This document shows positions 22,059 through 38,868 of a stretch of DNA of 43,736 bases, piece by piece. This DNA comes from a virus. Position 1 is the first letter of the stretch. The number at the start of each line of letters is the position of its first letter. The stretch lies in the UHGV virus genome UHGV-0197631; one strand, given 5' to 3'. Under the pieces are notes generated by a model. The model was not told the origin of the DNA. It saw nothing but the letters and a program-made list of their open reading frames with translations, and made no database searches. Position numbers and translations under genes: made by a program.

Positions 22059-22684
22059 GCGTTAGTTTCTCCACAGTCACGACACGCCACGGCGCCCGGA
22101 GCTGCACACTCGCGGGCGTCATTACTTTCTGAAATGCAAAAGATTTTGTAGACCAGTGCTGCATGCTCCTGCAGCTTCGAAATTGAGAGATACAGCTCGT
22201 CGTTAATTGCTGTCTGCTCGTGTGGCTCCACTACCCCATCTTCGATTGCCGAACGAATCTGCTTTGAGTAACTCCCGATCTGTTCGATGACTTCCAGCAG
22301 GCGCTGGTTTATATCGGCGTTCTCTACTTCCTCAATTTCAGGAAGCGATACGAACACCCCACCAGCAGACTGTGCGACAGCATCCGCAATGTAGTGAGTG
22401 CCAGCTGCGCGCTGTAAAACCATTGCCCATCCCAGCGGGAAAATCTGATCGCCATCGGCACGAAGGCGGTTAAATAATGCGTTCTCTGTTACATCCAGCC
22501 AGTCAGCAGCTTCAGCGTAACCACCCGGCAACGCCGCGATAGTTTTTCTGACAGCTTTCACGTACCACTCAGGCTGTTTTTCTACTTTCCAGTGATGCTT
22601 ACCCACGGTTAACTCCTCGTTTCTGTGGTTACGTTTACGCAACTGAACCGCTAACTTTTGAATAGCACTCTGGTAATCCATCAT
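22055..22684 (-). CDS. phage regulatory protein (CII/YdaT-like position), identity uncertain
   Basis: Long ORF downstream of cro; start tentatively at MMDYQ (ATG 22684); position corresponds to cII/ydaT of lambdoid and Rac-type prophages. Confidence 0.35.
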
Positions 22685-22898
22685 TTGGATTTGGATAAAT
22701 ATCAGGACGCAGCTCATGGGGGGTTACGGACCAGTTCCCCAGCTCACAAAGTTGTAAAACTCGTTCCGACGGGACTTGATTGTTAATTACCCAATTAGCG
22801 ACAGATTGAGTAGATTTAAAACCAAAGCGACGAGCTACTTCAGATAAAGACTTTCCCGCAGCCTTTACTGCTTTCTCGGTGTAGTTTTGAGATGACAT
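22635..22898 (-). CDS. cro: Cro-like HTH repressor
   Basis: 87 aa HTH protein divergent from the cI gene across an operator-containing intergenic region. Confidence 0.65.
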   Translation of the reverse strand: MSSQNYTEKAVKAAGKSLSEVARRFGFKSTQSVANWVINNQVPSERVLQLCELGNWSVTPHELRPDIYPNPNDGLPECYSKVSGSVA

Positions 22899-22930
22899 AT
22901 CTTTCTCCTCTGAAATCCAGAGGGGATAAT

Positions 22931-22968
22931 GCTACTTAAAGTAGCAAATTGCAACTACTTAAAATAGA
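22931..22968. promoter_or_regulatory. OR-like operator region (17-bp palindrome TGCTACTTAAAGTAGCA plus degenerate copy)
   Basis: Perfect 17-bp palindrome at 22930-22946 and related CTACTTAAAATAG 20 bp downstream, between divergent cro and cI. Confidence 0.5.
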
Positions 22969-22969
22969 A

Positions 22970-23710
22970 ATGACGAGCGTATGTGATGTGAGTAATCTTC
23001 TACCTATGGTAGAAGAACAGAAGTATCCAGATTTCGCCAAGAGACTAAACGAGTTAATGACAAACAAGGGAATTTCTGTCACCCAACTCAAAAGTCTTGT
23101 TGGCGTTACATATGAAATGGCGCGGCGATACACAATCGGCGCAGCGAAGCCTCGTGCCTCTGTCATGAATAAACTTGCGTTGGCTCTGGGGGTATCGGCT
23201 TCATATTTAGAATATGGTGTTGGCGAGAGAGAAGGATGTAAGGAAATGGCAAGCATCCCCAATCCAACAAAACCCGACGTATACAGGATAGAAGTTTTAG
23301 ATCTTAGCGTTAGCGCAGGACCTGGAACCTATATGCTTTCAGACTATGTTGATGTGCTCTACGCCATTGAGTTCACAACAGAACATGCCCGTTCTCTTTT
23401 CGGTAACCGTTCTCAGGATGATATTAAGGTTATGACTGTAAATGGCGATAGTATGTCCCCTACTCTCGTTTCCGGAGATCGACTGTTTGTCGACATTTCT
23501 GTTCGTCACTTCCAGACTGATGGAATTTACTCTTTCGTTTACGGTAAGACTTTTCATGTTAAACGTCTTCAAATGCAAGGTGACAAGCTAGCCGTTCTTT
23601 CGGATAACCCTGCCTATGAGAAATGGTACATCGATGAAAAATCGCAGGATCAGCTTTATGTAATGGGCAAGGCGTTGATTCATGAGTCAATAAAATACAA
23701 TCGGTTATAG
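22970..23710 (+). CDS. cI: CI-type repressor (HTH_XRE + S24 LexA-like peptidase domain)
   Basis: N-terminal HTH, C-terminal Ser/Lys dyad context (NGDSMSPT ... HVKRL); ORF opens at TTG 22949, ATG candidates at 22970 and 23006. Confidence 0.75.
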   Translation: MTSVCDVSNLLPMVEEQKYPDFAKRLNELMTNKGISVTQLKSLVGVTYEMARRYTIGAAKPRASVMNKLALALGVSASYLEYGVGEREGCKEMASIPNPTKPDVYRIEVLDLSVSAGPGTYMLSDYVDVLYAIEFTTEHARSLFGNRSQDDIKVMTVNGDSMSPTLVSGDRLFVDISVRHFQTDGIYSFVYGKTFHVKRLQMQGDKLAVLSDNPAYEKWYIDEKSQDQLYVMGKALIHESIKYNRL

Positions 23711-23725
23711 TTCTAAGGGCATATA

Positions 23726-24073
23726 ATGGCTAGTGAGCAGGGATTCGAAAAGATTAACATGGATATGTTGGTCTCTTATTTCTCAGAAAAGAATATATAT
23801 CTAAAATGTACACTATGTGGACACGACAGATTGACTGTGCCTCAAGTCAGCGCGAATGTGGGCATGCCATGTACTATGAAACTTGGTAGTTATGTGAATG
23901 TTTTTACTGAAAAAAGCATTTATTCTGATACTGCTAACCAGTATTACTTTTCACTAATATGCAACAATTGTGGAAATGAAATTCATATAAATGCGTTTTC
24001 AGTTTTGAACTGGGTAAATGAAAAGTTCCCAGCAAAAACGGAAGATGAAAAAAATGCCGACGCCGCAAAATAA
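23726..24073 (+). CDS. hypothetical zinc-ribbon-like protein in the rexA-equivalent slot
   Basis: 115 aa; two CxxC pairs (CTLCGH ... CNNCGNE); AT-rich; 16 nt downstream of cI on the same strand. Confidence 0.45.
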   Translation: MASEQGFEKINMDMLVSYFSEKNIYLKCTLCGHDRLTVPQVSANVGMPCTMKLGSYVNVFTEKSIYSDTANQYYFSLICNNCGNEIHINAFSVLNWVNEKFPAKTEDEKNADAAK

Positions 24074-24425
24074 TGTAGTACCATTTAATAGTGAACTTCC
24101 CACAATTAGAAGACACGGTGGAGATGGCGGAGGTGATGACATGCTTGAAGCCCGAGTCGCTAAGTTAGAAGCGAATGTTGAGGATATAAAAACAAATCTC
24201 GCAGAGATGAGAGCTGACATTCGTGATTTGCGAAACGCTCTCTCCGACACCCGACGCGATGTCGCTGTTATCCTTCAAAAACAAATAGATATAGATGAAA
24301 AGTTGTCAAAAAAACCTAGCCTAAGTGAAGTCAACAGCGCTATTTCATCAGCCGTAAATAAACAGATCGCATGGACTGTTGCAACAGGCTTGGCGATTTT
24401 AGGTCTCGCCAAATTTATGTTTTGA
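24045..24425 (+). CDS. hypothetical coiled-coil protein with C-terminal transmembrane anchor (rexB-equivalent slot)
   Basis: Start at MKKMPTPQ overlapping the upstream stop; central heptad-like region (LEARVAKLEANVEDIKTNLAEMRADIRDLRNAL); C-terminal IAWTVATGLAILGLAKFMF. Confidence 0.45.
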   Translation: MKKMPTPQNNVVPFNSELPTIRRHGGDGGGDDMLEARVAKLEANVEDIKTNLAEMRADIRDLRNALSDTRRDVAVILQKQIDIDEKLSKKPSLSEVNSAISSAVNKQIAWTVATGLAILGLAKFMF

Positions 24426-24756
24426 TAAGTTTTTGACTATGACCTGCCCTAGTTTTCTTACTATCGAGGCTAAATCACACAATCCATTGAGTAGTAAATT
24501 CCCTACCGTTTTACACTTAGCCTCCAAAAACTCAACAATACTCTCATGATTGACTTCTCCCCACTTGATGATTAACTAGATCACATACTGATCTCAGCCA
24601 CAATGAAACAATCCATCACGTTCTACAACTCAGCTAACTTCACAATATAATTTTTTGATCATAGCCCCCAAAATATTTTACCTGTAAATTCAATGAATTA
24701 ATTTCAAAATGCGTTTTCATGCCCTTAACTTCTACTTTTTGTAGTTGATTTTTGCA

Positions 24757-24773
24757 ACTTTAAGTAGCAATAT
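24757..24773. promoter_or_regulatory. OL-like operator copy
   Basis: TGCAACTTTAAGTAGCA matches the OR palindrome TGCTACTTAAAGTAGCA at 15 of 17 positions (right half-site identical), ~1.8 kb from OR. Confidence 0.4.
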
Positions 24774-24896
24774 CATTTTACCGACAACGAACAGGCAGGA
24801 CGCCCACGAAGTAGCCGCTTGGGGCATATGAAGTCCAGGATGACTCGTTGAGTCATGTTGTGCCACTAGGCACTCATGTTAAAGCAGGTGTATGAA

Positions 24897-25172
24897 ATGA
24901 AAGTCCAGATTTTAAACAATAACTGTGAAGTCGTTTGGTCATACGACATAGCCGCCCCTGTAGATCAGAGCGGCGATAGCTGGACCAATGGGAAACATCA
25001 GATTATGGCTGGAGTTGTGTTCTCTTTACGCCGTGCTTTGGAACAGGCTGAAGTATTTCCATCAGACCCTGAATGGAAATGGCCTTTTTCTATTTGTCCA
25101 AATTCGGAGAGCACATTTCAGAAAATTGGTCAGAAAGTCGCACTCGAAGAGCATCAGCCAACTGTTTCCTGA
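24897..25172 (+). CDS. hypothetical protein (first ORF downstream of OL-like operator)
   Basis: Start MKVQILNN with AGGTG upstream; overlaps convergent ORF 25090..25335, so one of the two may be spurious. Confidence 0.3.
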   Translation: MKVQILNNNCEVVWSYDIAAPVDQSGDSWTNGKHQIMAGVVFSLRRALEQAEVFPSDPEWKWPFSICPNSESTFQKIGQKVALEEHQPTVS

Positions 25173-25335
25173 TTTTTTCAGGTAACTCGTCGGCATCGCA
25201 GAAACAACAACGCTCGATCATGTTGAAAGCCGATTCGTAGAACTGTTTCTGCTGAGTGTCGCTGAGACAGGAAAAGAGCGACGTTACGATGATTTTATTA
25301 ATTGCATTATCAAGTTCTTTTTCATCAAAAGTCAT
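25090..25335 (-). CDS. hypothetical acidic protein
   Basis: 81 aa; AGGAAA Shine-Dalgarno 8 nt upstream of ATG 25335. Confidence 0.35.
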   Translation of the reverse strand: MTFDEKELDNAINKIIVTSLFSCLSDTQQKQFYESAFNMIERCCFCDADELPEKIRKQLADALRVRLSDQFSEMCSPNLDK

Positions 25336-29751: not shown

Positions 29752-29800
29752 TGGTGCCGATAATAGGAGTCGAACCTACGACCTTCGCATTACGAATGCG
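29752..29800 (-). other. att core: 49-nt 3' portion of tRNA-Thr(CGU) (thrW-type), not a complete tRNA gene
   Basis: Reverse complement reads CGCATTCGTAATGCGAAGGTCGTAGGTTCGACTCCTATTATCGGCACCA (anticodon loop with CGT, T-arm, acceptor 3' end, CCA); D-arm and 5' acceptor half are absent. Confidence 0.7.
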
Positions 29801-29984
29801 ACGTTAATATACTTTCAACTGTTTGAATAGTCACTCTAAAACTCATTTTTATCATTATAAAACATACTATTACCATAAATCACCTATTGATTAAAATTGA
29901 CAGGTGTTGATGTTTATTCCCGCAATTTACTTACACCAGCCGTTACATTACTGTAAGACAGAAATCCTCAACTGGAACCAGACT

Positions 29985-37839: not shown

Positions 37840-38868
37840 CTAAGCGTTATCTATGTATTTCAATGCATAGCTTTCGAAGCTGTTTATTTTATTAAAATAA
37901 TCAGGAATAAATGCATGGACAAATGTATCAAGGTCAGTATTAATCGTGTTTGTATTGATTAATTCAATCATGTGTTCAGGTTCGCTGTCCAAAAAGAGAA
38001 TTGCAAGTATGAGACCGAACTTTGGTGCTATTTCTCTAAATATCAAATAAGTAAGTTCACCGTAAGGCTTCACGCTTTCATTCAAAATGCCAGAGATATA
38101 CTCCCTGCCATTCATGCCGCGTTTATTATAGGAATCTATAATTTCGTAAAAATCGCTGCCATCGATATCAACTTCAGGGTCAAAATCATTGAGTGATACA
38201 TCGTTGTTTAGACAATATCTTACTGTTGAAATACACAAGTAAAGAAAAAGAAGGGTTCCCAGACTACCTTGGCGTTTTACTGGATTTCCGGACTCTGATA
38301 GGTATCGATATTGGCAATAGTACGCAATGGTTTCACACAAACTAATATGACGTATCAAGAGACTATCATCATTACAAGCGCGTGATATACTAAAATCAGC
38401 GGCATGACCGAGTTCATGCACAAAGAGGTCTGTAGATGTCACTCCAAATGGATCATCTTGAGTAAAAATGAAATGTTCATCATCTCTGTTGGAAATACAA
38501 AAACCCTCAGAACTTTTTCTGATTTGATTCTCAATATGAAGCCACTCAACCTTGTTCAGATTAACTTTTAGGCAATTCTCAACAAAATCGCGCGCTACAT
38601 TAAATTCACGCTCTGAAATAGGATTGCCTAATGAAGATGGGTCAGTGGAACTCAAACGCTTCAGAAATTCAGAAGAAAAATATAAAGGCGAAACCAGATC
38701 AACAAGAGCCGTGACTGAATTCAGGAGTTTATTGTGCACATCCCCTACAATTTCTTCGCCAGTCCTGTGTAATGCCTCATCAAATTCCTGGAAAGAGTTT
38801 CCATTTTTAGTAGCAATCACGCATTGCGTTTCAAGTTCATAGTATTTTTTTCGCAGTATTGAATGCAT
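37840..38868 (-). CDS. HExxH motif protein (putative metallopeptidase-like), unknown function
   Basis: Single HExxH (VHELGHAAD) in 342 aa; AT-rich; convergent with the Mrr-like gene. Confidence 0.4.
   Translation of the reverse strand: MHSILRKKYYELETQCVIATKNGNSFQEFDEALHRTGEEIVGDVHNKLLNSVTALVDLVSPLYFSSEFLKRLSSTDPSSLGNPISEREFNVARDFVENCLKVNLNKVEWLHIENQIRKSSEGFCISNRDDEHFIFTQDDPFGVTSTDLFVHELGHAADFSISRACNDDSLLIRHISLCETIAYYCQYRYLSESGNPVKRQGSLGTLLFLYLCISTVRYCLNNDVSLNDFDPEVDIDGSDFYEIIDSYNKRGMNGREYISGILNESVKPYGELTYLIFREIAPKFGLILAILFLDSEPEHMIELINTNTINTDLDTFVHAFIPDYFNKINSFESYALKYIDNA

Follow-up and report, generated by a model that had tools for sequence, protein, structure and literature searches.

Paired operators around a lambdoid repressor gene in virus genome UHGV-0197631: a putative immunity region with exchangeable cargo and a structured leader RNA

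Virus genome UHGV-0197631 (a stretch of 43,736 nt, hereafter the window) carries a 17-bp palindrome between divergent cro and cI genes, and a similar palindrome about 1.8 kb away, beyond cI and two small genes. Do these sites form the rightward (OR) and leftward (OL) operators of a genetic switch, and what does this make of the genes between them? The first-pass annotation had read the arrangement as the OR–OL geometry of lambda and the two intervening genes as rex-equivalents. Our results suggest, with a probability of about 85%, that these sites belong to the immunity region (genetic switch) of an Escherichia coli lambdoid prophage, as OR and OL operators that would be bound by the CI repressor.

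Five dyads, arranged in two clusters (three at OR and two at OL), bracket cI and the cargo genes behind it. They share the half-site T(G/T)CTACTT. OR1 (22930–22946, TGCTACTTAAAGTAGCA) is an exact 8+1+8 palindrome between cro and cI, as originally described; it sits in the spacer of the candidate rightward early promoter (PR) and overlaps the -10 hexamer. OR2 (22953–22969, AACTACTTAAAATAGAA) overlaps the PR -35 hexamer by 2 nt and abuts the -35 of the candidate repressor maintenance promoter (PRM). It is the related copy that had been placed 20 bp away, but the spacing is 23 bp start-to-start with a 6-bp gap. The distal near-identical copy, OL1 (TGCAACTTTAAGTAGCA), is also present, at 24753–24769 rather than at 24757–24773, which is 4 nt too high; it lies in the spacer of the candidate leftward early promoter (PL) and overlaps the -10. 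Two further sites are absent from the first-pass annotation, i.e. OL2 (24730–24746, TTCTACTTTTTGTAGTT), which overlaps the PL -35 by 2 nt, and an OR3 candidate (22998–23014, TTCTACCTATGGTAGAA), which has 7+7 symmetric arms and spans the cI ATG. The divergent cI and cro genes are split by a multi-site operator, with three dyads across the 107-bp intergenic region and the cI start. Measured start-to-start, OL2 and OL1 are 23 bp apart, OR2 and OR3 45 bp, and OR1 and OL1 1823 bp.

Could the 17-mers be chance matches? The AT-richness of the intergenic DNA and the low complexity of the motif centre (TTAAA) speak for this, but the numbers do not. With up to three mismatches, the 17-mer occurs twice in the window against 0.07 expected, and none of 100 dinucleotide shuffles reaches two matches; the core CTACTTNNNGTAG with up to one mismatch gives nine strand-hits against 1.11 expected; and in a leave-one-out position weight matrix (PWM) analysis none of the five sites comes lower than second among 43,720 positions. 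The sites are also conserved and linked in relatives (see below), contrary to chance. These site statistics and the comparative data together refute a chance origin, to which we assign a negligible probability. A half-site inside cro (22834–22848) and a match within an open reading frame (ORF) at 38799–38815 were, by comparison, judged to be chance occurrences. Nothing site-like was found as a third OL site within ~100 bp upstream of OL2, where flanks are unrelated between lineages, and no HK022-like extra operator ~300 bp downstream of OR/PR was found in the window.

The two clusters are related as wholes. Positions 22925–22978 and 24721–24774 form a 54-nt inverted repeat with 78% complementarity, the arms of which, read in the direction of transcription, are one module consisting of O2, a -35, O1 in a 17-bp spacer and a CANNAT -10. 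In both modules the -35 shares its first two bases with O2, while O1 fills the spacer and touches the -10. The candidate PR (22926–22954, minus strand; -35 at 22949–22954, -10 at 22926–22931) reads TTCTATTTTAAGTAG-TTGCAA-TTTGCTACTTTAAGTAG-CATTAT, and the candidate PL (24745–24773, plus strand) reads TTCTACTTTTTGTAG-TTGATT-TTTGCAACTTTAAGTAG-CAATAT. Across four OL lineages the PL -10 is CAATAT, CAACAT, CATCAT or CAGAAT, with A2 and T6 always kept. PR, PL and PRM were all placed manually, guided by the register of the inverted repeat and the conserved A2 and T6. The candidate PRM (22970–22998, plus strand; -35 ATGACG, 17-bp spacer, -10 TAATCT) points the other way from PR, into cI. Its -10 ends 7 nt before the cI ATG at 23006 and no Shine-Dalgarno sequence precedes this ATG; an Enterobacter locus (L007) has the same geometry (TATAAT tgaacct ATG). 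We infer from this spacing that the cI mRNA from PRM is leaderless, as in lambda, and OR3 would then cover the PRM -10/+1 region. The best sigma-70 match of the region is a different one, TCTACA-18-TATAAT (10/12) at 24622–24651 on the plus strand, which reads into OL/PL from the non-coding, cargo-specific DNA that precedes OL.

We then compared these features across related loci. The N-terminal domain of this cI together with OR is found in 206 of 5426 complete E. coli genomes (~4%). OR1 is kept in all related loci with at most one change and OR2 is invariant (alignment A1). OR and OL are both present in nine out of nine E. coli prophage loci. The IMG/VR sample consists of 38 contigs recovered by OL or OR pattern: the OL-pattern search returned 34 loci, 27 of which have OR upstream within the stretch compared, and in the remaining seven this stretch ends early and OR was found on the same contigs; the OR-pattern search added four contigs, three with OL and a fourth that is too short. 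A megablast search with the 59-bp OL block returned 17 genomes, a low figure set by the 28-nt word limit and not by absence of the block. A scan of genome contigs with cI recovered two distant relatives only (Citrobacter and Enterobacter), which were used for half-site comparison and not for linkage.

The distance between OR1 and OL1 among relatives falls into at least six classes (1823, 1915, 1963–65, 2247, 2387–97 and 2729 bp), a consequence of cargo exchange between cI and OL. When OL regions of lineages with different cargo are aligned, they agree over a block of ~50 bp (OL2/-35/OL1/-10) but have nothing in common upstream of it; in one lineage the sequence downstream of the block is unrelated as well. 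Judged from these alignments, the block is a phylogenetic footprint, and its conservation between unrelated flanks shows that OL travels with the repressor rather than with the neighbouring genes. Within the block, OL2 is conserved across all OL-bearing loci though their upstream flanks are unrelated, and the OL1 variants of the lineages (GCAACTTTAAGTAGC, GCTACTTTAAGTAGC, GCTACTTTTAGTAGC and GCTACTTTTGGTAGC) all keep dyad symmetry, with the CTAC/GTAG arms as the conserved part.

This pattern bears on a second alternative, namely that the distal copy is no more than a leftover of a promoter duplication or of a joint in mosaic recombination, with palindromes at 24730–24769 that the repressor does not bind. 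The likeness of PR and PL as inverted copies would follow from common descent alone, and the OL block coincides with the mosaic boundary at which variable cargo gives way to the conserved leader. A relic is, however, hard to reconcile with an OL1 symmetry that persists in every lineage even where the bases differ, with the 23-bp O1–O2 spacing kept at both OR and OL, and with an OL that accompanies this cI in every contig long enough, despite at least six different cargos. HK022, moreover, has homologous annotated OL sites, and its CI loops OL to OR in vivo (PMC8053113). We therefore consider the relic explanation very improbable and retain the reading of the distal block as an operator.

Which known switch does the region resemble most? 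The cI gene (23006–23710, plus strand) encodes a 234-aa protein with Pfam HTH_3 and Peptidase_S24 domains, and with the motifs Ala104-Gly105, the Ser of GDSM, and Lys186. The start at 23006 agrees with that of the Prokaryotic Genome Annotation Pipeline (PGAP) in most related loci. PGAP gives two starts among these loci, a 253-aa product from an upstream TTG (L008, 4548–5309) and a 234-aa product from the ATG (L001, 3407–4111); the ATG start is favoured, both by the aligned cI proteins of HK022 and HK639 and by the geometry of OR3 and PRM. The protein shares 58% identity with HK639 cI, the closest repressor of a sequenced phage, and 42% with HK022 cI over residues 1–234.

The HK022 record X16093 (Oberto et al. 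1989; for the immunity region see also Carlson & Little 1993, cited in PMC8053113) annotates two adjacent oL sites and three oR sites, with oR3 across the cI ATG. The window shares with HK022 (i) the 3+2 site count, (ii) a dyad over the cI ATG, (iii) two adjacent OL sites over PL, (iv) cI homology over the full length (alignment A7), including an S24 self-cleaving repressor, (v) an O1–O2 spacing of 23–24 bp and (vi) an RNA element immediately downstream of PL. The candidate OR3 matches the place of HK022 oR3 (TGAACTTATGGTTCA). At this homologous position, HK022 has TGAACttATGgTTCA, the Enterobacter locus TGAACctATGgTACA and the window TCTACctATGgTAGA, with arms GAAC/GTTC, GAAC/GTAC and CTAC/GTAG, respectively. 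From phage to phage, the arms thus vary in step with the OR1/OR2 half-site. The two regions also differ: the HK022 half-site is GAAC/GTAC whereas that of the window is CTAC, and the recognition helix differs; HK022 has oR2 in the spacer and oR1 downstream of the -10, while O1 is in the promoter spacer here; OR2 and OR3 are 33 bp apart in HK022 against 45 bp; and OR and OL are separated by ~0.7 kb without cargo in HK022, against 1.8 kb with cargo.

HK639 belongs to the same repressor subfamily. It too carries cargo genes between cI and PL, and its annotation places an RNA element downstream of PL. Its operators are ATAACnnnnGTTAT, hence it has another immunity specificity. As in lambda, PRM–cI and PR–cro diverge, cI is flanked by operators on either side and separated from OL by accessory genes that lie on its own strand, the 17-bp dyads are 23–24 bp apart and the cI mRNA is likely to be leaderless. 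The window differs from lambda in several respects, however. Lambda has six sites (three at each operator) against five here, with two at OL; lambda OR3 lies between the PRM -35 and -10 whereas here it lies over the start codon; OR1 and OL1 are 2407 bp apart in lambda; the match to lambda cI is marginal and local (22%, E 0.11, confined to 76 aa of the C-terminal domain); and no N gene or nut site was recognised in the window, which has a structured RNA in that place. The lambda-like geometry proposed at first holds insofar as inverted operator–promoter modules, conserved and linked, bracket cI and cargo; as a template for the OR/OL layout, HK022 is better supported than lambda by these sequence comparisons.

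The immunity specificity itself, i.e. the CTAC half-site together with a TYEMARRY recognition helix, is new within a well-known kind of switch, on its HK022-like branch. Recognition helix and half-site vary together: TPKA(I/V)SKW pairs with GAAC (HK022 and the Enterobacter locus), SQPAIQK with ATAAC (HK639), TPGVWKW with TTAAC (the Citrobacter prophage) and TYEMARRY with CTAC (the window). These four provide a natural series for the study of repressor–operator co-evolution.

The following mechanism may be proposed for the switch. A LexA-like self-cleaving CI, and presumably Cro too, would recognise the 17-bp dyads. OR1 and OR2 would lie over PR, OR3 over the cI ATG and the PRM -10/+1, and OL1 and OL2 over PL. 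Cooperative binding of CI dimers to O1 and O2 would keep both early promoters shut in the lysogen. To judge from the CI proteins of HK022 and lambda, CI probably also loops the DNA so that OR and OL are bridged; it is reasonable to expect such a loop over the 1.8 kb here. PRM would make a leaderless cI mRNA that runs on into the two cargo genes, so that cargo in the slot between cI and OL would be expressed along with the repressor. When in excess, CI would occupy OR3 and turn PRM down, and SOS-activated self-cleavage at Ala104-Gly105 would lift repression.

Several observations weigh against this interpretation. The immunity type has no match at the DNA level among the 50,697 sequenced phage records of INPHARED, although ~4% of complete E. 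coli genomes carry the specificity. The linkage counts are not independent events because the related loci form one prophage lineage. Taken singly, OR3 and OL2 are the weakest sites, since a shuffled window would yield 0.7 and 0.3 hits, respectively, in the leave-one-out PWM analysis, and the conservation of OR3 in the family is not independent evidence because the site lies in coding sequence. PR and PL match the sigma-70 consensus at only 8/12 and 7/12 positions and fall below the scanner threshold; PRM was likewise uncalled in the consensus promoter scan. The centre of OR2 is at about -44/-45 from the putative PRM start, compared with -42 in lambda, and CI activation of PRM from OR2 therefore cannot be assumed. 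Finally, no intrinsic terminator that would keep PRM transcription out of the PL operon is predicted in the window between the second cargo gene and OL; in the variant with a ParA-like cargo, a terminator is predicted right after ParA.

Taken as a switch, the operator layout leaves the understanding of lambdoid switches unchanged. The cargo slot and the RNA in the PL leader are the parts worth following up, and the leader RNA is the less expected item.

We now turn to the genes between the operators. Cargo gene 1 (23726–24073, plus strand; PHROG 4293, of unknown function) encodes a soluble 115-aa protein with two CxxC motifs and no transmembrane (TM) segment. Cargo gene 2 (24045–24425, plus strand; PHROG 3556) encodes a 126-aa protein with a GGDDML motif and a coiled coil; it has a conserved core GGDDML...LSKKPS and a single C-terminal TM segment (hydrophobic residues 108–126), i.e. 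it is tail-anchored. Cargo gene 1 starts 16 bp after cI. Because the cargo is on the cI strand at this short distance, co-transcription from PRM is likely. Neither cargo protein has a significant Pfam or NCBIfam family, and PADLOC 2.0 returned short weak matches only (best E 7.7e-3 for gene 1 and 2.8e-4 for gene 2, the latter in the coiled-coil region).

Are these genes functional Rex equivalents, i.e. a sensor and a membrane effector that abort infection by other phages? They occupy the rexA–rexB slot on the same strand, form a two-gene module that is probably co-transcribed with cI as in lambda, and yield one soluble product with CxxC motifs and one membrane product. By contrast, BLASTP against lambda RexA and RexB (a three-sequence database) found no similarity (best E 7.2 and 2.4); RexA and RexB have 279 and 144 aa against 115 and 126 aa here; RexB has several TM segments and cargo gene 2 only one; and no PADLOC model fits the cargo proteins convincingly. 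The name rex-equivalents used for them in the first-pass annotation is thus sustained for position and not for homology.

The distribution of the gene-2 family can be read both ways. The family is confined to Enterobacterales and is unnamed save for one 'Hemolysin XhlA' label. Its members are found repeatedly right behind repressor genes of several immunity types, as the downstream gene of pairs whose upstream partners are not homologous: in the cI–oL slot of HK544 and VT1-Sakai, in Pectobacterium and Klebsiella prophages of other immunity types, and in a sibling prophage of the window (L062). Besides the window copy, members lie at 1182–1733 in L014, 2336–2785 in L015, 1757–2047 in L062, 3501–3866 in L070 and 3501–3911 in L071. 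The upstream partners in HK544 and UPF_BP1 are not similar to cargo gene 1. A further member lies after mnt in a P22-like phage, between mnt and gp16, which we take to be the sieA position. Recurrence of a membrane protein right after repressor genes, with changing partners, favours a Rex-like role. The XhlA label of one homologue, on the other hand, is of a lysis-associated type, and two occurrences are not beside a repressor gene: a Hafnia homologue lies beside tail genes, and the S107 pair lies between Rha genes and the tape-measure gene.

The slot (23711–24729) holds at least six alternative modules in prophages of the same immunity type (L002, L003, L009, L062 and L063 were compared). Sibling cargos include a ParA-like ATPase, a pair of 120- and 210-aa proteins, and a HigB/HTH/third-gene cassette (HTH, helix-turn-helix). 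The last of these (L063, 1793–3143) matches PADLOC models PD-Lambda-2_A (3.5e-41), PD-Lambda-2_B (7e-49) and PD-T4-9_C (1e-13), and is by these matches a PD-Lambda-2/PD-T4-9-like toxin–antitoxin defence cassette. Its presence in the same slot also favours a Rex-like role of the window genes, although the ParA-like ATPase of other siblings need not be a defence gene. On balance, we regard functional equivalence to Rex as possible but rather unlikely; the term may stand as a hypothesis and as an analogy of position, but it does not describe a finding. Irrespective of this, the slot, with its differing sibling cargos, behaves as a repressor-linked cargo and defence hotspot, the borders of which are fixed by the operators and in which at least six modules are exchanged. 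Because one of these modules is a recognised defence system, the slot is a useful hunting ground for new prophage exclusion genes.

Beyond OL, the ~65 nt that follow PL are the sole part of 22600–24900 that is common to sequenced phages. This segment is found in SfV, SfII, SfIV, ST64B, ZF40, mEp237 and mEp460, as well as in Yersinia, Pantoea and Klebsiella phages, and its sequence is present in ~1445 of the 5426 E. coli genomes (about a quarter). It contains a predicted leader RNA (24786–24849, plus strand; invariant core GGCAGGACGCCCACGAAGUAGCCG) in which an outer 6-bp helix (24786–91/24844–49) encloses two hairpins, a small one and one of 5 bp whose loop has 12 nt (24818–22/24835–39). An ungapped alignment of 14 phage and prophage sequences (A6) supports the outer helix and the 5-bp hairpin by covariation: 96.9% of cells are paired, compared with 22–47% when the partners are slid, and 10 of the 14 leader RNA pairs show compensatory changes; none of 500 shuffles reaches the observed values. 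Single-sequence folds are uninformative (z = -1.1 and +0.6). Rfam has no match to the leader RNA, either over the whole window at the gathering threshold or in 24700–24960 at E<=10.

Where an upstream repressor is annotated in the examined loci, the match begins ~100–170 bp past the end of the repressor gene, and for any immunity type it begins ~20–25 nt after a -10-like hexamer. In both the window and SfV it begins ~10–15 nt downstream of the predicted start of PL, which is what rightward firing of PL from this spot would lead one to expect.

The position is that of HK022 putL, which raises the possibility of common identity. Both are structured RNAs of ~65 nt, located ~10–15 nt into the PL transcript, and they share the strings ACGAAC.GGC and CAGGAUGA. 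HK022 put, however, has two long stems instead of an outer helix with small hairpins, and the window has one copy only, the PR side lacking one. A covariance model built from the 14 sequences finds this one copy in the window and none in HK022 or HK639, the RNA of the latter being put-like, and the leader RNA was therefore rejected as a put homologue. The first ORF of the PL operon (24897–25172, plus strand; 91–98 aa) has no arginine-rich N-like motif; it belongs to the SfV orf33 family (PHROG 3195, 6e-70; a PGAP coding sequence in the E. coli strain GB089 locus), and no nun gene like that of HK022 was recognised, though the protein was not compared directly with Nun. Our leading guess is that the leader RNA might be a cis-acting antiterminator. 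That it represents a second, independent class of protein-free, cis-acting processive antiterminators, functionally analogous to put and serving N-less lambdoid phages, seems doubtful at present. If true, the antiterminator would be linked to the neighbouring immunity module, while any such module could be swapped in at the PL -10/+1 junction.

The wider gene content of the window is that of a lambdoid E. coli prophage. Positions 22600–24900 are 99.8% identical to the GB089 locus, and flanking genes are homologues of ymfL, yfdN, yfdP, yfdQ and yfdR. On the minus strand, the cro-like gene (22635–22898) encodes an 87-aa HTH protein of the YdaS/Cro type (Pfam YdaS_toxin, 4.6e-11; PHROG 35, transcriptional repressor), labelled 'transcriptional regulator' by PGAP in GB089; it is followed by a CII/CP76-like gene (CP76 domain) and then by replication genes. 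On the plus strand, cI and the two small genes are followed by ~300 bp of AT-rich non-coding DNA and then by a run of early genes, and the genes downstream of PL are all on the plus strand.

Two places further along the window deserve mention. The ORFs 24876–25172 (plus strand) and 25090–25335 (minus strand) both have full-length PHROG matches (3195 and 3311, respectively) and overlap convergently by 83 bp; PGAP calls the plus-strand ORF only, and a minus-strand terminator-like hairpin (25391–25372) lies just upstream of the minus-strand ORF. At 29763–29820 on the minus strand there is a partial Rfam tRNA match (33.2 bits, model positions 9–63 of 71) with no ARAGORN call, perhaps a fragment of a tRNA or a tRNA-like remnant.

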